Shown here piece by piece: positions 6,310-39,990 of a DNA stretch of 43,594 nt (position 1 is the first letter of the stretch; every line of letters starts with the position of its first letter). Location: sequence record OZ035783.1. One strand, given 5' to 3'. Under the pieces are notes generated by a model. That model had not been told where the DNA came from, searched no databases, and worked only from the letters and a program-made list of their open reading frames with translations. The translations under genes were made by a program, and so were the position numbers. This DNA comes from Kagunavirus PDP21P8.

Positions 6310-7359
6310 ATGGCAATTACCACTATCGGCGATATCGTAACTGGCAACATCCCGGTCCTGGCGTCTTATATGACCGAGGACCCGGTAGAAAAAACCGCGT
6401 TCTTCCAGTCTGGTATTCTGACCCCGACTCCATACGCTGCCGAGATTGCCCGCGGCCCGTCCAACGTCGCTAATATTCCTTTCTGGAAAGCGATTGATAC
6501 TTCTATCGAGCCTAACTACTCGAACGACGTATACCAGGACATCGCCACCCCGCGTAACGTGCAGACCGGCGAGATGATGGCCCGCGTTGCATACCTGAAC
6601 GAAGGCTTCGGACAGGCGGACCTGACTGTCGAACTGACCAGCCAGAACCCGCTGCAATCCGTAGCGTCCCGTCTGGACAACTTCTGGCAGCGCCAGGCAC
6701 AACGCCGTCTGATTGCTACCGCGCTTGGTCTGTACAACGACAACGTAGCCGCTACCGACGCTTACCACGAGCAGAATGACATGGTAATCGACGTGTCTGC
6801 TACTCTGGGCTTCGATGCGGGCGCGTTCATCGACGCTACCCAGACTATGGGTGATGCGCTGATGGGCAACGGCGGTGAAGTGCTGGGCGCTATCGCGATG
6901 CACAGCTTCGTCTATGCACAGGCCCGTAAGCAGCAGCTTATCGACTTCATCAAAGACGCTGACAACGATACCTTGTTCGCCACCTACCAGGGCTACCGCG
7001 TGATTGTTGACGACAGCATGACCGTAGTCGGCACCGGCACGAGCCGCAAGTTCATCTCCATCATCTTCGGCAACGGTGCTATCGGTTACGGTGAAGGTTC
7101 TCCGTCCAACCCGCTGGCCTATGAGCGCGAAGAGTCTCGCGGTAACGGTGGTGGCGTTGAAACCCTGTGGACCCGTAAGACCTGGCTGCTGCACCCACTG
7201 GGCTACAGCTTCACTAGTGCGGTAATCACCGGTAACGGCACCGAGACTGTCGCACGTTCTGCTTCCTGGCAGGACCTGGCGAATGCCTCCAACTGGAACC
7301 GTGTGGTTGAACGTAAGCATGTACCGATTGCCTTCCTGGTAACTGGTGTCGGTGCTTAA
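6310..7359 (+). CDS. major capsid protein
   Basis: 349 aa ORF after scaffold, followed by a strong terminator; position and size based. Confidence 0.7.
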   Translation: MAITTIGDIVTGNIPVLASYMTEDPVEKTAFFQSGILTPTPYAAEIARGPSNVANIPFWKAIDTSIEPNYSNDVYQDIATPRNVQTGEMMARVAYLNEGFGQADLTVELTSQNPLQSVASRLDNFWQRQAQRRLIATALGLYNDNVAATDAYHEQNDMVIDVSATLGFDAGAFIDATQTMGDALMGNGGEVLGAIAMHSFVYAQARKQQLIDFIKDADNDTLFATYQGYRVIVDDSMTVVGTGTSRKFISIIFGNGAIGYGEGSPSNPLAYEREESRGNGGGVETLWTRKTWLLHPLGYSFTSAVITGNGTETVARSASWQDLANASNWNRVVERKHVPIAFLVTGVGA

Positions 7360-11766: not shown

Positions 11767-11810
11767 CTTGTGGTATAAGAAGTGTAAAGGATAGCTTTAG
11801 CGGGCGAAAA

Positions 11811-11839
11811 AGAGAGGGGTCGTGCCCTCTCTTTCCTTT
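11811..11839 (+). terminator. rho-independent terminator
   Basis: AGAGAGGG-gtcgtg-CCCTCTCT hairpin then TTCCTTT. Confidence 0.6.
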
Positions 11840-11873: not shown

Positions 11874-12506
11874 ATGTTTCTGTATGAAGAATTTGAAAAG
11901 ATACCCGCGTCAAAACGGGCGGTATCATACCGTAAAACAATCTGCGGTGTCGGTATCAACGACGCTGATTTTACCGCTAGTATTTTCAACGGCAAAAAGT
12001 CTGTTAATCACCCAGTATATGATATTTGGTATGCGATGATATTCAGGTGCTACCACGGGGTCGCCAAGCACCCAACATACGCAGGTGTGGTAGTGTGCGA
12101 AGACTGGCTATATTTCTCCAACTACTTTAAATGGTATAAAGATAATTACGTAGATTGTTGGCATGTAGACAAGGATTTACTTACAGATGCCAAAGAATAC
12201 TCACCGGAGACATGCATCTTTGTCCCAAGAGTTTTAAACAACTTCCTAACCGACAGCGCAGCGGCCAGAGGAAACCTACCAATAGGCCTTACTTATAGAA
12301 AAACAAACGGCAAGATACGGTGCCGTGTTAACAATCCCATAACCGGGGTACGGGAAAACTTAGGCGATTTTATTGACTTGGACGAAGCCATCAAGGCCAG
12401 AACGTTGCGGAAATTGGAAATAGCAGAAGAACTTAAGCCGCTTATGGATTCCATAGACGGGAGAATATGCCCAAGAGCCGTTTCGGTAATTAATTCACAA
12501 CGATAA
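11874..12506 (+). CDS. AP2-like DNA-binding domain protein, possible homing endonuclease
   Basis: C-terminal GLTYRKTNGKIRCRV...LGDFIDLDEAIKA resembles AP2 domain; gene is visibly AT-richer than flanks; no HNH motif identified. Confidence 0.35.
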   Translation: MFLYEEFEKIPASKRAVSYRKTICGVGINDADFTASIFNGKKSVNHPVYDIWYAMIFRCYHGVAKHPTYAGVVVCEDWLYFSNYFKWYKDNYVDCWHVDKDLLTDAKEYSPETCIFVPRVLNNFLTDSAAARGNLPIGLTYRKTNGKIRCRVNNPITGVRENLGDFIDLDEAIKARTLRKLEIAEELKPLMDSIDGRICPRAVSVINSQR

Positions 12507-12537: not shown

Positions 12538-12765
12538 CTAATCAATGTTACTCCTGTACTCCCGTAACTTTTCAAGACTTTCAATTGCTTCGTTAAGGTC
12601 CGTGTCTGCGTCCTTATGCCCTCTGCCACCCATGCATAACAGTTTCTTTAACGCGTGCTGTAACGCGGGGTCGTGGATAACGAAGGCCCTTAGCACATCA
12701 TAAACATCACATGTAATGGAATCGCCTGCGGTGTTGGTGAGTGTATGGTCATATTTTGAAGTCAT
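12538..12765 (-). CDS. small protein, DUF3310-like (tentative)
   Basis: 75 aa; pattern D-x-YDV...HALKKLL..GGRGHK..DL.EA resembles the DUF3310 phage family from memory; ATGA-coupled to upstream gene. Confidence 0.4.
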   Translation of the reverse strand: MTSKYDHTLTNTAGDSITCDVYDVLRAFVIHDPALQHALKKLLCMGGRGHKDADTDLNEAIESLEKLREYRSNID

Positions 12766-13892
12766 CCCAGCATCTCCGGTGAAATAGTTAAACGTGCGAC
12801 CTCGCCAAATTCGGCGCTATAAGTAATTACATTTGCACTACGGCCCGACATCCAACCTCCGCGGGAGGCGTAGGCGTCTTTAGCCGCTAAGGTGCGGTGT
12901 TGCTCAACAATCATGTTACGGCTTTCTACAATCTTCTGGTGGTGCAGATGGCCTACGTGGGCGTAGCTGTAAACACTCTCGCCGAACGCTTTACGGAACT
13001 TGGCAATCATAACAGGTTCAATAGCGTCGAATCGTGCTTTATGCCCGTGATGGAAGAACAGCGTCGTTTTGCCGTGTTGCACCATCTTGTAAACATCCGG
13101 TGACGTATCGACGAACACACGCGGCTCATTGTCATACAGCGTACTGAACATCTCAGCCAACCAAATCATGCCACTTTCGTCGTGATTCCCTTGCACGATA
13201 AGCAAGCGAACATTTTTATGCTTAACCAGCGCCATATCGACAACACGGCGGACCATGCGAATCATGTAGCGGACAAGTTTCTGGTAACGGGTGTCGGCGT
13301 CAAGGGCGTGACCGCTTGCAGGTGTAACGGCAACCAGACTATCGAAGTGCGCGAAGTCGCCCAGCAGGTTAATAACCCCAGTCCCCGCATCCGGTGCTTT
13401 CTGGAATGCCGCATCGAACCAACGGGAGAACAGGTCTTCTGCAATCTTCATATCCCAGTCGTCGCCACTCTCGTCGGCCCAGGCCAGCATACCGAGATGG
13501 AAATCAGACACAGTGTAAAGGTTGAGTAGCTTGTCGTCCCGTTTGGCGCGAACGGCTTTAACAGGAGCAACGGGGGTAATCTCCGACTTCATGCCCTCGA
13601 TTATGGCTTTCATCAACTCGACCTGACGTTCGGCATCGGTGTCGGTCTTAACCCATTGCAACTTAGTGTTGCCGAACTCATCAACCAGCGACGATGTGCC
13701 TTTAATCTTGTAGCCATCTGGTACAAGGTGGCTAACGTCACGCCCGTGGCCTACACCTTTCTTAGCCAGCTTCGCTTTACGGATACGAATAACTCGGTCT
13801 GAGATGCCGTATTTACGGGCGATGTCTACGTTCTTCATCCCGGCGTTCAATTCTTCCTGTAATTGTTCGTCGGTTATTTTCTTCCGGGCCAT
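12762..13892 (-). CDS. HTH-fused calcineurin-like metallophosphoesterase
   Basis: 376 aa; N-terminal HTH (DIARKYGISDRVIRIRKAK); motifs SDFH, LLGDFAHFD, QGNHDES, HHGH, GHLHH match the D-x-H / GD / GNH[DE] / GHxH metallophosphatase set; SD GAGGAAG. Confidence 0.7.
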   Translation of the reverse strand: MARKKITDEQLQEELNAGMKNVDIARKYGISDRVIRIRKAKLAKKGVGHGRDVSHLVPDGYKIKGTSSLVDEFGNTKLQWVKTDTDAERQVELMKAIIEGMKSEITPVAPVKAVRAKRDDKLLNLYTVSDFHLGMLAWADESGDDWDMKIAEDLFSRWFDAAFQKAPDAGTGVINLLGDFAHFDSLVAVTPASGHALDADTRYQKLVRYMIRMVRRVVDMALVKHKNVRLLIVQGNHDESGMIWLAEMFSTLYDNEPRVFVDTSPDVYKMVQHGKTTLFFHHGHKARFDAIEPVMIAKFRKAFGESVYSYAHVGHLHHQKIVESRNMIVEQHRTLAAKDAYASRGGWMSGRSANVITYSAEFGEVARLTISPEMLG

Positions 13893-13957
13893 GCTTACTT
13901 CCTCGTGTTTAGGATTTGTCCTATTTAACCACAGTGCATTCCTTTAAATAAAGGCGA

Positions 13958-14309: not shown

Positions 14310-14341
14310 TGAATAGTACCCTATTATATTGGGGTGTGCAA
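14310..14341 (-). promoter_or_regulatory. early-type promoter with AATAG-N4-CTATT operator
   Basis: minus-strand reading TTGCAC-17 nt-TACTAT, nearly identical to promoter at 36243-36274; ends ~26 nt upstream of the ATG at 14284. Confidence 0.5.
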
Positions 14342-14448: not shown

Positions 14449-14865
14449 ATGAAACTTTCTGATTTTTATTTTGCTGACCGCCATGCTGTAGGCACTAAAA
14501 TGCCTATCCTTCTGCCGAGTGGTAAAGACTCCGGTGAATGGTTGCAGGTCATTGGCCCAGATTGTGATGCTGGCGTTCGTGCGGGCCGCGCCTACACAAC
14601 GGCAATTCGACGCCTTACGGAAGAACTTGCGCCGTTAGATAAAGAGTGTGAGGCACTGAATAATTGGGCACGCTACAACGATGAGAAGGGTTGGCGGGTG
14701 ATGGACCTGAACAAGCAGCTTGCCGTGGAAATTGTCACCGGTTGGTCATTCGACGAACCGTTCAGCAAAGAGGCTCTGGCTAACCTGTTTGACCAATACA
14801 GTGGGCTGGCGGAGGCCGTAGTTAAGCATCACACCGACAGTCGCGAGAAACTCTCGGAAAAGTAA
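14449..14865 (+). CDS. tail assembly chaperone
   Basis: 138 aa ORF immediately upstream of the tape measure gene; followed by overlapping -1 frame ORF. Confidence 0.5.
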   Translation: MKLSDFYFADRHAVGTKMPILLPSGKDSGEWLQVIGPDCDAGVRAGRAYTTAIRRLTEELAPLDKECEALNNWARYNDEKGWRVMDLNKQLAVEIVTGWSFDEPFSKEALANLFDQYSGLAEAVVKHHTDSREKLSEK

Positions 14866-15227
14866 AAGCGCTGTATGAATTTGCGCAATGGTGCTTTGTC
14901 GACCGCCACAAACGTAAGCAATTCGACGACATAGCGGCAGGCCACCAGGCGGCTTTGATTGCAATGGGCGTGATTAAAGAACCGCAGATGAAAGAAGCGA
15001 CGGGGCCTGAATGCCCCGTTTCTCTTATCGACGTGTTCGAGAAATACCGTGCCATTAAATTCCTACAGCGCGAAACAGATGATACTATCGTTATAATCCC
15101 GCGCGATGCGCTCAAATGGCAAGATTTGGTAGCGTTTCGTGATGTCGCCGGTTACGGCATAAGTTTGTTCGAAGCCGAGGTTATCATGGGCTTAGACGGA
15201 ATATTTGAGGGCAGAGAAGATGGCTGA
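14826..15227 (+). CDS. tail assembly chaperone -1 frameshift extension
   Basis: -1 frame is open from 14826 (40 nt overlap with upstream ORF) with no ATG until 14964; candidate slip site G GAA AAG at 14856-14862. Confidence 0.4.
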   Translation, partial: ASHRQSRETLGKVKALYEFAQWCFVDRHKRKQFDDIAAGHQAALIAMGVIKEPQMKEATGPECPVSLIDVFEKYRAIKFLQRETDDTIVIIPRDALKWQDLVAFRDVAGYGISLFEAEVIMGLDGIFEGREDG

Positions 15228-18901: not shown

Positions 18902-21444
18902 TATTACATTACACCCGTAACGAAGACGGTACTTTTGACCGCAAACGGTATAACGTACCCCCGATGGAATACGTCGTTGCTAACATCCCAGACGGGGTAC
19001 CTGTGCGTATTTACCGCGGAGAGATTGGTGATGATACAGACGTAACGGAAAACTTCGAAGCGCTGAAAGAAGATGACGTTTTCCATATCATCGAGGGCGC
19101 TGGCGGCGGCGGTGGTTTTCTGGGTAAACTCCTGGACCCTTTGGGTGTGCTTAAATTTGTTACCAAGTTGATTTCTCCGTCGCAGAAAACGCCTAAAACG
19201 AGTTTAGCGAACCAGCAGGCGGAGTCCCCCAACAACAGCTTGACGGACCGAAACAATAAACCGCGTCCGTATGAACGGTCGTATGATATTTGCGGCAGGG
19301 TCCAGACTATCCCTAATAACCTCATGACTACGTATAAGGTCTTCAACGACGCAGGTGTGGTAGTTGAATACGGCTACTATGACGCCGGTCGCGGGTATCT
19401 TGATATTAAAGCCGAAGACATCACCGATGGCGATACTAAAGTACAGGAGATTACAGGAACTTCTGTAGCGGTATACGCCCCATTTACGTCCCCTAACAAC
19501 ACAAATACGCCTCAGCTTCTGGTAGGGGATCCTATTAATCAGAATCTATACATAACTATTGCCTCGAACGAGGTAGATGGGGTCGTTCTTAAAGCGCAGA
19601 ACGACATCAGGGTTAATCCCAGTGATACCGGGGAGATTTCATTGCAGGGGGCAACTGGTGTCGTCCGCGATAACACTGGCGACTCTGCTTTCTCTGAGAT
19701 TTTATCAGTTGGGGACATAGCTGTTTTTAACCTTATTCTGGTAAAAGACGTGGCTAACGTCAGTGGTAGCTATACCGTTACATACGTAGATGACTTTGAG
19801 GTAAGAGTAGCCGCCGGAGGGATGTTGTCAGAATGGCAAAAATTGCCATCAGGATTCACTCCTTTAACGCAAGGTACCGAAGCATGGATTTCACCATCTA
19901 ACACCTACGATAAGTCGTTAACGGACTGGACCACTTTAAACCGCCTGGAAATTGAACGCGTAGTAGCCAACATCGCGGCCGCGAATGGTATGTATAAAGA
20001 CAACGGCAGTAAATTGCGCACGTCGGTAACTGTCGAGCTTCAGTATCAACTCCTTGATGAAACTGGCGTGCCGTACGGGGATGTTTACTCAAAACAGGCC
20101 GTTATATCAGGTCGTTCTGCGGATTACACAGGTGTTACTATTTACGCCGACTTGCCCGTGCGGTCTAAAGTTAGAGTGCGCGCCCGCCGTGTTACTAACC
20201 TTGACCTTAGTTTCGAGGGAACCGTGGTAGATGAGGTTTCCTACATCAATCTTTATGGGCAGGTACGCGACACTACGCCGCATTACGGCAACCGTACTAC
20301 CGTGCACTCCGCACGTAAGCAGACGCCGCGGGCCGCGGAGATTAAGCAGCCGCAACTACGTATGGTTGCCACAGAGATGGTGTACAAATACCTCGGCAAC
20401 GGCGTATTCGACACGGTTATGACACCGAATACTCAGGCGATTCAGTCCTTAATCCGTCTTGCCCGCGACCCGGTAGTAGGTAATCTCAACCTAACCACAT
20501 CCAATATGGACAAGTTGTTAGCGACTCAGAACGAGATAGAAAACTATTTCGGTAACGCAGAGGCTGGTCAATTCTGCTACACTTTTGACGATTATAAAAT
20601 GACTATGCAGGACATAATCAGCACAATAGCCGACGCTATTTTCTGCACACCATATCGTAAAGGGCAAGACATATTACTGGATTTCGAGCGCCCGCGGATT
20701 GGCCCGGAGATGGTGTTCACCCACCGCAGTAAGACAACGGCTTCGGAAAAGTGGACGCGCACATTCAACGACGCTCAGGTATACGATAGTCTTAAGTTCT
20801 CCTATATTGACCCCGACACCAACGTAAAAGAGACTATTAGCATCCCGGCAGAAGGAGGTGTTAATACTGAAACGTATGACTCTAAAGGTATCCGTAACTA
20901 TCGACAGGCGTATTGGGCAGCTTATCGACGTTACCAGAAAAACTTGTTGAAGAAAGTCACGGTGTCCTTTACGGCGACAGAAGAAGGAGTTTTTGTGCTG
21001 CCTGGTCGCGCAATAAGCGTCGTTAAAGGTTCGCGCGTAGCGCCTCAAGACGGCTATGTTGTTGCCGTTAATGGTCTTACTCTGACTTTATCACAGCCTG
21101 TCACATTTACTCCGGGTGACGACCACTCTTTAATCCTTAAGAAGCGCGACGGTGGTGTCCAGAGCGTCGCTGTAGTTCCTGGAAGTCATGGCCGTGAAGT
21201 GGTTATGTTATCCGCGCCGCAGGAAGCAATTTATACAGGTAATAGCGCACTAAAAACTGAGTTTTCATTCGGCAACGAAGCAAGGCATAATGCTCAGATG
21301 ATTCTTGTTTCTACAGTTGACCCAGGAGACGACAGAACGGTTAAGATTACTGGGATTAACTACGAAGCAGATTTCTATAAATACGACGGCGTCGCACCTT
21401 TCGGTAGCGGTTTCTCCGGCGGATTCAGCAACGGTTTTAGTTAA
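18892..21444 (+). CDS. tail tip / central fibre protein
   Basis: large ORF after minor tail genes; start uncertain (TTG 18892 with SD GGAG, or ATG 18964). Confidence 0.5.
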   Translation: MALILHYTRNEDGTFDRKRYNVPPMEYVVANIPDGVPVRIYRGEIGDDTDVTENFEALKEDDVFHIIEGAGGGGGFLGKLLDPLGVLKFVTKLISPSQKTPKTSLANQQAESPNNSLTDRNNKPRPYERSYDICGRVQTIPNNLMTTYKVFNDAGVVVEYGYYDAGRGYLDIKAEDITDGDTKVQEITGTSVAVYAPFTSPNNTNTPQLLVGDPINQNLYITIASNEVDGVVLKAQNDIRVNPSDTGEISLQGATGVVRDNTGDSAFSEILSVGDIAVFNLILVKDVANVSGSYTVTYVDDFEVRVAAGGMLSEWQKLPSGFTPLTQGTEAWISPSNTYDKSLTDWTTLNRLEIERVVANIAAANGMYKDNGSKLRTSVTVELQYQLLDETGVPYGDVYSKQAVISGRSADYTGVTIYADLPVRSKVRVRARRVTNLDLSFEGTVVDEVSYINLYGQVRDTTPHYGNRTTVHSARKQTPRAAEIKQPQLRMVATEMVYKYLGNGVFDTVMTPNTQAIQSLIRLARDPVVGNLNLTTSNMDKLLATQNEIENYFGNAEAGQFCYTFDDYKMTMQDIISTIADAIFCTPYRKGQDILLDFERPRIGPEMVFTHRSKTTASEKWTRTFNDAQVYDSLKFSYIDPDTNVKETISIPAEGGVNTETYDSKGIRNYRQAYWAAYRRYQKNLLKKVTVSFTATEEGVFVLPGRAISVVKGSRVAPQDGYVVAVNGLTLTLSQPVTFTPGDDHSLILKKRDGGVQSVAVVPGSHGREVVMLSAPQEAIYTGNSALKTEFSFGNEARHNAQMILVSTVDPGDDRTVKITGINYEADFYKYDGVAPFGSGFSGGFSNGFS

Positions 21445-39606: not shown

Positions 39607-39681
39607 ACCGTTATTAGGATAATTCCTACCCGTGGTATCCTCCAGTTACTGCATACTTAATACGCACCTGGAGGATTCATC

Positions 39682-39990
39682 TTGGATAAATTTACTGAAA
39701 CAGTGACGGGCTGGCTTCTCGCTGCCGCACTCGCCGGAGGGGTCATCGGACTACGACAACATAAGTCCGCTATTTCCGGCCCTATCGACGGATTCTGCTT
39801 TATTGCTACTGGCTTCACTTGCGCCGTATTCGGTGCACCTCTCGCTGCCCAATGGTTTGGCATCACAGGCGAGCGTGAAATCGCTGGCCTCGGATTCATC
39901 ATTGCCATTCTCTGGATGCCTATTTATTCCCGTCTCTCCGGTATTGTTGCCGGAGAATACATCTCACGTCGAGGAGGCCCGGATGAATGA
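39682..39990 (+). CDS. holin (putative)
   Basis: 102 aa with multiple TM segments, TTG start with SD GGAGGA; immediately upstream of endolysin. Confidence 0.55.
   Translation: MDKFTETVTGWLLAAALAGGVIGLRQHKSAISGPIDGFCFIATGFTCAVFGAPLAAQWFGITGEREIAGLGFIIAILWMPIYSRLSGIVAGEYISRRGGPDE

Follow-up and report, generated by a model that had tools for sequence, protein, structure and literature searches.

The window analysed here, a stretch of 43,594 nucleotides from Kagunavirus PDP21P8 (sequence record OZ035783.1), is the nearly complete genome of an Escherichia coli siphophage of the genus Kagunavirus (Guernseyvirinae). Its minus strand carries an intact open reading frame (ORF) for a 376-aa protein in which an N-terminal helix-turn-helix (HTH) domain precedes a calcineurin-like metallophosphoesterase domain (Table 1). 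The hidden Markov model (HMM) of PHROG 704 matched the protein end to end, with residues 4-375 aligned to profile positions 2-389 of 390 (E 5.7e-166), and few residues differed from the deposited PHROG 704 proteins. XLJ73898.1 of phage vB_VIPECOTH07 is 99.7% identical to it and annotated as 'DNA repair exonuclease, phrog_704'. The five superfamily motifs (DxH, GD, GNH[DE], H and GHxH) were all found. The PHROG 704 match, the motifs and the modelled fold thus confirmed the original prediction of a calcineurin-like metallophosphoesterase with an N-terminal HTH, and the motifs it had quoted (SDFH, GDFAHFD, GNHDES, HHGH and GHLHH) are all present in the protein.

Table 1. Features of the window around the phosphoesterase gene and at the holin gene.
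Feature	Position	Strand	Remarks
Terminator-like hairpin	11809-11834	+	10-bp stem, T-rich tail
HNH endonuclease gene	11874-12506	+	phrog_953
Downstream ORF, 75 aa	12538-12765	-	phrog_2452 (E 7.1e-33); no Pfam match
HTH-metallophosphoesterase gene	12762-13892	-	Intact ORF, 376 aa, PHROG 704 family
Metallophosphoesterase catalytic core, residues 119-370	12783-13538	-	Motifs I-V and family-specific conserved loop 181-202
Beta-hairpin and helix linker module, residues 61-103	13584-13712	-	From AF2 secondary structure and invariant columns
Three-helix HTH DNA-binding domain, residues 8-44	13761-13871	-	
Shine-Dalgarno-like GAGGAAG	13898-13904	-	5 nt 5' of the ATG; read from sequence, kept in relatives
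Inverted repeat TAGGATTTGTCCTA (TAGGA-N4-TCCTA)	13910-13923		18 nt 5' of the ATG
First cassette gene, 108 aa	13958-14284	-	phrog_14165; hydrophobic N-terminus
Candidate sigma-70-type promoter of the cassette	14313-14341	-	TTGCAC, 17 nt, TACTAT; read from sequence, weak consensus
Tail assembly chaperone pair	14449-14865 and 14955-15227	+	
Second TAGGA-N4-TCCTA copy	39615-39628		Spacer 5' of the holin gene; holin named from relatives
Holin spacer	39615-39690		Holin start at 39682

The family proved to be large. A 2-kb query around the gene matched 301 phage records, mostly of Salmonella and Escherichia phages, and tblastn detected homologs in 2039 of 50,697 phage records (about 4%), with 1957 of them covering at least 80% of the protein. 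These came from Guernseyvirinae, Drexlerviridae (T1 gp16, Webervirus) and Dhillonvirus, and from Vibrio, Campylobacter, Flavobacterium, N4-like and Thermus phages. In an exhaustive HMMER search of 1.84 billion cluster representatives, 4630 clusters had an E-value of 1e-3 or lower and 1154 had one of 1e-30 or lower. The best 150 clusters were, with few exceptions, 360-430 aa long, and the family as a whole was nearly constant at about 375-420 aa. Because the catalogued family is so large and its length so uniform, the HTH-phosphoesterase architecture is the norm of PHROG 704, and its description as unusual in the original prediction was mistaken. Family members are annotated as 'DNA repair exonuclease', 'calcineurin-like phosphoesterase', 'phosphoesterase', 'DNA polymerase II small subunit' or 'HTH domain protein', and every one of these annotations rests on homology. 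The window protein is a further member of a catalogued phage family. The sequence finding itself is therefore unsurprising, and the question left is biochemical rather than genomic.

The active site was well conserved. The motif residues are D130 and H132 (motif I), D179 with H182 (motif II), N236 and H237 (motif III), H282 (motif IV), and H315 and H317 (motif V). In an alignment of 140 homologs with 33-50% identity, D130, H132, G178, D179, N236, H237 and H282 were invariant, and H315 and H317 nearly so. The Pfam models scored just below their gathering cutoffs, with 18.9 bits against 21.5 for Metallophos (PF00149) and 21.4 bits against 27 for Metallophos_2 (PF12850), and PF00149 matched 31 of 124 relatives at E up to 0.01. 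Scores this close to the cutoffs imply that the family forms a divergent branch of the calcineurin-like superfamily.

The initial homolog search yielded only proteins of 97-99% identity, which were of no use for structure prediction, while a renewed search for a diverse alignment yielded homologs of 44-54% identity. The AlphaFold2 (AF2) model, built from 124 sequences, had a predicted local distance difference test (pLDDT) score of 84 and a predicted template modelling (pTM) score of 0.75. It showed the β-sandwich fold of the phosphoesterases, with residues 119-370 as the core. The loop from 181 to 202 was modelled poorly in spite of its conservation, which includes the invariant residues H182, D184, T190, P191, D198, D200 and R202. 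In the fold comparison, the best matches of the model were S. aureus SbcD (14.3), PolD DP1 (13.8) and the polymerase delta B-subunit (13.7), followed by MJ0936 (13.6), E. coli SbcD (13.0), and LpxH and YfcE (12.9); no close solved homolog was found there. Searches of the Protein Data Bank (PDB) with the single sequence or the full-length profile gave only weak HTH hits and chance matches, and trimming to the catalytic domain revealed Mre11/SbcD. With the trimmed profile, T. maritima Mre11/SbcD was the sole match among all PDB sequences at E <0.05 (0.013-0.036), and the next match was Nuclease MPE (E 0.27). In the alignment to T. maritima Mre11, SDFHLGM, GDFAH, GNHD and GHLH of the window protein stood opposite SDWHLGV, GDLLH, GNHD and GHIH. 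Both the Mre11-type motif I (DxHLG) and the motif II GDxxH, with a His three residues past the Asp, were present. The motifs of the window protein therefore do align with active-site positions. Two independent methods, sequence and fold, agree in pointing modestly to the nuclease branch. From the options listed in the original prediction, the Mre11/SbcD-type nuclease is thus favoured, while nothing points to the degradation of immune second messengers.

Three bundled helices, including a recognition helix, make up the N-terminal domain, which resembles known DNA-binding HTH domains, and an HTH of this type fits a nucleic-acid enzyme. Between it and the catalytic core, residues 61-103 form a β-hairpin and a helix with invariant G65, S67, W80 and K82. 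Structural comparison of the N-terminal region gave no specific match beyond the HTH, and no recognisable counterpart of this module was found. Separately, we observed that the gene is a mosaic, in which the HTH (residues 1-45) recombines separately from the catalytic domain among Kagunavirus, Jerseyvirus and Dhillonvirus. The window protein shares 58% identity with that of Jerseyvirus f18SE over residues 1-45 and 95% in the catalytic domain, and the corresponding values with Dhillonvirus Over9000 are 59% and 85%. Between f18SE and the related phage templet, the HTH is 100% identical and the catalytic domain only 49%.

The same features bear on the idea of a counter-defence phosphodiesterase, which would destroy small signalling nucleotides or metabolites of the host's immune response, for example cyclic oligonucleotides, cyclic nucleoside monophosphates or ADP-ribose-derived signals. 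A small-molecule enzyme would have no obvious use for a DNA-binding HTH conserved throughout the family, and nucleases are the best matches by both sequence and fold. Acb1 and Apyc1, which act against CBASS and Pycsar, are nucleases not known to share its fold. No characterised signal-degrading enzyme (Acb1, Apyc1 or similar) was among the PDB sequence matches at E up to 10. PADLOC, whose models cover defence and not anti-defence, gave no match either, and the gene contexts described below contain genes of DNA metabolism and of lysis, not anti-defence clusters. We consider this explanation very improbable. As a single case, the metagenomic contig Ga0633760_002285 carries an Acb2/Tad1-hairpin Pfam match, a family of anti-defence sponges, at 6565-6927, about 1.4 kb downstream of its phosphoesterase gene and past a lysozyme gene; none was seen in the other contexts. 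Papers on the Metis and PUA-Cal-HAD defence systems were set aside, since the metallophosphoesterases described there are bacterial and not of phage origin.

The explanation that we favour, with moderate confidence, is a stand-alone Mre11/SbcD-like DNA nuclease that is tethered by its HTH and acts in phage DNA or nucleotide metabolism. The five motifs, invariant or nearly so across distant homologs, were counted in its favour. In such an enzyme, D130, H132, D179, N236, H282, H315 and H317 would form a di-metal centre, assisted by H237 and H182, and the hydrolysis of DNA phosphodiester bonds would depend on a divalent metal, probably Mn2+, in the manner of the Mre11/SbcD branch. The N-terminal HTH would bring the catalytic domain to DNA, in place of a capping domain and Rad50/SbcC. 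The most probable role would be the breakdown of host DNA for nucleotide salvage, or the processing of DNA ends or intermediates. Possible parallels are T5 A1 with the DNA-binding protein A2, which was likewise counted in favour, and T4 gp46/47. The metal dependence, DNA as the substrate and the biological role are the parts of this explanation that we infer.

The phosphoesterase gene is the second of three genes that form a minus-strand cassette within the tail-gene region. The flanking genes are all on the plus strand, with the major tail protein and HNH endonuclease genes on one side and the tail assembly chaperones on the other. The start of the 75-aa ORF overlaps the stop codon of the phosphoesterase gene (ATGA), which suggests translational coupling. 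In vB_VIPECOTH07, a superinfection-immunity-like gene takes the position of the phrog_14165 gene, and the candidate promoter, which a consensus scan did not report, is kept there despite the different first gene. Having an apparent promoter of its own, the cassette is probably expressed independently of the structural genes.

Several side observations concern this arrangement. A strong terminator-like hairpin directly follows the major tail protein gene and would shield the late operon from both the HNH gene and the opposite-strand cassette. The two chaperone genes match the two halves of phrog_15027; since the corresponding pair in phage K1H is annotated as a joined, frameshifted product, a programmed frameshift 5' of the tape measure gene is probably present. 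The HNH endonuclease gene and the 75-aa ORF occupy the place taken in K1H and vB_VIPECOTH07 by a HAD phosphatase and a deoxynucleoside monophosphate (dNMP) kinase. The 75-aa ORF covers only the C-terminal ~70 of ~235 positions of its PHROG profiles and may be a remnant or a free-standing domain after gene replacement.

The wider gene contexts included genes of DNA metabolism and of lysis. The window phage itself encodes PolA, a gp2.5-like SSB, a phrog_69 exonuclease, a helicase-primase, a second helicase, a methyltransferase and a VRR-NUC-type endonuclease. A gene for a PNKP-type HAD phosphatase directly follows the phosphoesterase gene in K1H and vB_VIPECOTH07, and also in the unrelated Webervirus TSK1, with a P-loop dNMP kinase gene behind it. 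An NT5C-like HAD and a dNMP kinase occur in the Thermus phage context, ThyX and dCMP deaminase lie upstream in the N4-like Roseovarius phage, and in one metagenomic contig the gene lies between PolA on its upstream side and a MazG-like domain on its downstream side. In T1, TSK1, the Vibrio phage, the Dhillonvirus and two metagenomic contigs, the gene ends the DNA-metabolism region and lies near or just before the lysis genes. The occurrence of neighbours from DNA or nucleotide metabolism in several phage lineages that are not related to each other was counted in favour of the HTH-tethered nuclease. For a broader sample, 80 IMG/VR loci were reduced to 25 clusters at 70% identity, and the neighbours within 4 kb were surveyed with BLASTP and an iterative HMM search.

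Several results weigh against the nuclease explanation. In the survey, HAD and dNMP kinase genes occurred near the gene in just 3 of the 25 clusters, and the window phage has neither. The commonest conserved neighbour was an endolysin gene, about 230 nt downstream, in 8 of the 25 clusters. Mre11/SbcD acts with a capping domain and the Rad50/SbcC ATPase, whereas the window protein lacks the C-terminal capping domain. No Rad50/SbcC-like ATPase was found among the larger ORFs of the window's replication region that were scanned against PHROGs, nor as a neighbour in any sampled gene context. The link to T5 A1 is weak, amounting to relatedness at the superfamily level and functional analogy and not to membership. 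A literature search for experiments on family members found none, in agreement with the original prediction, which had called the substrate unknown, and nothing relevant to PHROG 704 was found in the literature on T1 gene 2.5, on escape mutants or in the BASEL collection paper.

The PNKP-type neighbour also raises the possibility of an end-healing phosphoesterase, which would strip 3'-phosphates or 2',3'-cyclic phosphates from broken DNA or RNA in the manner of the metallophosphoesterase module of bacterial Pnkp. It would team with the downstream phosphatase and kinase, for example in the repair of damage by host nucleases. The gene order in K1H, vB_VIPECOTH07 and TSK1 agrees with this idea, and PMC2190708 and PMC3675462 describe 2',3'-cyclic phosphodiesterase activity for two metallophosphoesterases, Clostridium thermocellum Pnkp and lambda phosphatase, which serve as precedents. 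However, the lambda phosphatase and Pnkp branch was not the closest to the window protein by either sequence or fold, and we regard the explanation as unlikely. RNA repair in particular had been suggested by the label 'polynucleotide kinase' on the neighbour. This was weakened because the protein so labelled in the three phages is the HAD phosphatase domain of PNKP alone (PF25109, E ~1e-19), and because the trio of genes was confined to the few clusters mentioned above.

The DNA upstream of the gene was examined for signs of regulation. The original prediction had described TAGGATTTGTCCTA as a 14-bp palindrome and a possible autoregulatory site, but it consists of 5-bp arms, TAGGA and TCCTA, on either side of 4 nt that are not palindromic. 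In total, 58 perfect inverted repeats of this 5-N4-5 form were counted in the window, so that chance could account for one inside the 65-bp spacer. These arms recur at exactly one other place in the window, in front of the holin gene; this exceeds chance, with 0.02 occurrences expected, although the test was made post hoc. K1H keeps both copies, again exactly two per genome. A single region was fetched from each of two further phages; that from vB_VIPECOTH07 has the copy upstream of the phosphoesterase gene in spite of a different upstream gene, and that from EF2-1 has the copy at the holin site. The copies were conserved amid flanking substitutions in K1H and, at the holin site, in EF2-1. In Jerseyviruses the repeat is degenerate, and upstream repeats comparable to it in T1, TSK1, Dhillonvirus, the Vibrio phage and Jerseyviruses were at chance level or were terminators only. 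The site is a possible operator, kept as a candidate by its conservation in vB_VIPECOTH07, by the second copy at the holin gene and by the joint variation of the HTH and the upstream DNA described below. A role of the repeat as an RNA hairpin was rejected, as the fold of the mRNA leader had a z-score of +0.56.

These sites would be the targets if the protein were mainly a transcription regulator, whose HTH binds TAGGA-N4-TCCTA at its own gene and at the holin gene and so couples expression of the enzyme with that of the lysis cassette. The phosphoesterase domain would then be an effector or sensor module, and nuclease activity would be compatible with this role. The presence of exactly two copies at these two sites in both the window and K1H speaks for regulation, as does the direct adjacency of the gene to lysis genes in many other phages. 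Furthermore, the HTH varies in concert with the upstream DNA between Kagunavirus and Jerseyvirus, with little change in the catalytic domain, and f18SE and templet share an HTH in spite of their divergent catalytic domains. However, a single recombination breakpoint inside the gene, acting through physical linkage, explains the covariation equally well. The repeat is also short and common by chance, about one per 90 nt being expected once spacers of 0-8 nt are allowed. A comparable repeat is missing in Jerseyviruses, and none is common to T1, TSK1 and Dhillonvirus. Other small HTH proteins of the phage could bind the sites (K1H gp41), and all catalytic residues are strictly conserved. Overall, a mainly regulatory protein appears quite improbable.

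Three further observations were made on these spacers. Each of three Guernseyvirinae genomes contains exactly two copies of a degenerate 12-mer, TARGAYAAWYCY, one 5' of the phosphoesterase gene and one 5' of the holin gene (window 13923 and 39615; K1H 12639 and 37809; f18SE 19925 and 37499), where about 0.15 occurrences per genome would be expected; the test is circular, because the motif was derived from those very sites. The phosphoesterase-side copy in f18SE has the opposite orientation. In the holin spacer, the second repeat copy is followed by a perfect 9-bp inverted repeat, ATCCTCCAG / CTGGAGGAT, with the holin Shine-Dalgarno GGAGG in its 3' arm. The predicted RNA hairpin of this spacer is significantly stable, with a minimum free energy of -23.8 kcal/mol (z -2.8), and in this folding model it could provide translational control of lysis timing. 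Finally, at the ribosome-binding site of the f18SE homolog there is a run of ten G (~19927-19936; CAATCGGGGGGGGGGAATAAGCATG) that templet lacks; this tract could be prone to slippage and so affect expression, or it could be an artefact of sequencing.

Compared with known systems, the window protein shows no substantive difference from PHROG 704, T1 gp16 (ST16) and K1H gp19: length and architecture agree, and the family HMM matches over the full length. The Mre11/SbcD set compared comprised T. maritima Mre11 (3qg5/2q8u), S. aureus and E. coli SbcD, and phage T4 gp47. Unlike these, the window protein has the N-terminal HTH with the β-hairpin module and the conserved loop 181-202. The identity to them is only about 14-17%, and nuclease activity of the window protein is a prediction. 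From archaeal PolD DP1 and the eukaryotic polymerase B-subunits, the window protein differs in having no OB fold as its N-terminal domain and no accompanying PolD large subunit; in the T1-like phages with this gene, no polymerase of the phage itself is annotated. Nuclease MPE of Pseudomonas putida (6nvo), the second-best PDB sequence match, is a metallophosphoesterase nuclease that stands alone and lacks Rad50; its name has been given to one NCBI nr entry, for a protein 98% identical to that of the window.

T5 A1, the nearest functional precedent, has been described as a predicted metallophosphatase with structural likeness to nucleases of double-strand break repair and polymerase proofreading, and has been reported to be essential and sufficient for degradation of the host chromosome (bioRxiv 10.64898/2026.04.02.716235). 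It is reported to act jointly with the DNA-binding protein A2 (T5 GenBank record notes). A T5 A1 family alignment was built from IMG/VR and compared profile to profile (hhalign) with that of the PHROG 704-type family. The two were collinear over motifs III-V (GNHD..WL, HGH and GHxH) and a C-terminal ITY strand, with a probability of 40.6% and a P value of 2.9e-4, and a comparison of single sequences matched only 19 columns. T5 A1 differs in its length of 556 aa, its N-terminal half and its lack of a fused HTH, and it is a pre-early gene confined to Demerecviridae; similarity between T5 A2 and the window HTH was not detected.

By analogy, the family might be a single-chain equivalent of A1 and A2, a self-targeting host-chromosome nuclease in T1-like phages, Guernseyvirinae and many other siphophages, whose HTH would also bind a short operator common to its own gene and the lysis cassette and thus tie DNA breakdown to lysis timing. 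This fuller proposal seems to us rather unlikely. If true, one abundant gene would explain the degradation of host DNA in a large share of enterobacterial siphophages. The gene contexts and the family size, like the architecture, the motif conservation and the predicted fold, are established, and the gene is carried by about one in 25 deposited phage genomes, including T1 and many phages of E. coli, Salmonella and Klebsiella that are candidates for therapy. Knowing what the protein cuts, and whether this is host DNA as with T5 A1, would close an annotation gap, and its function could matter for defence systems that sense the breakdown of the host genome. The likeness to T5 A1 lies in the design of both systems, in which a stand-alone, nuclease-like phage metallophosphatase is paired with a DNA-binding module.
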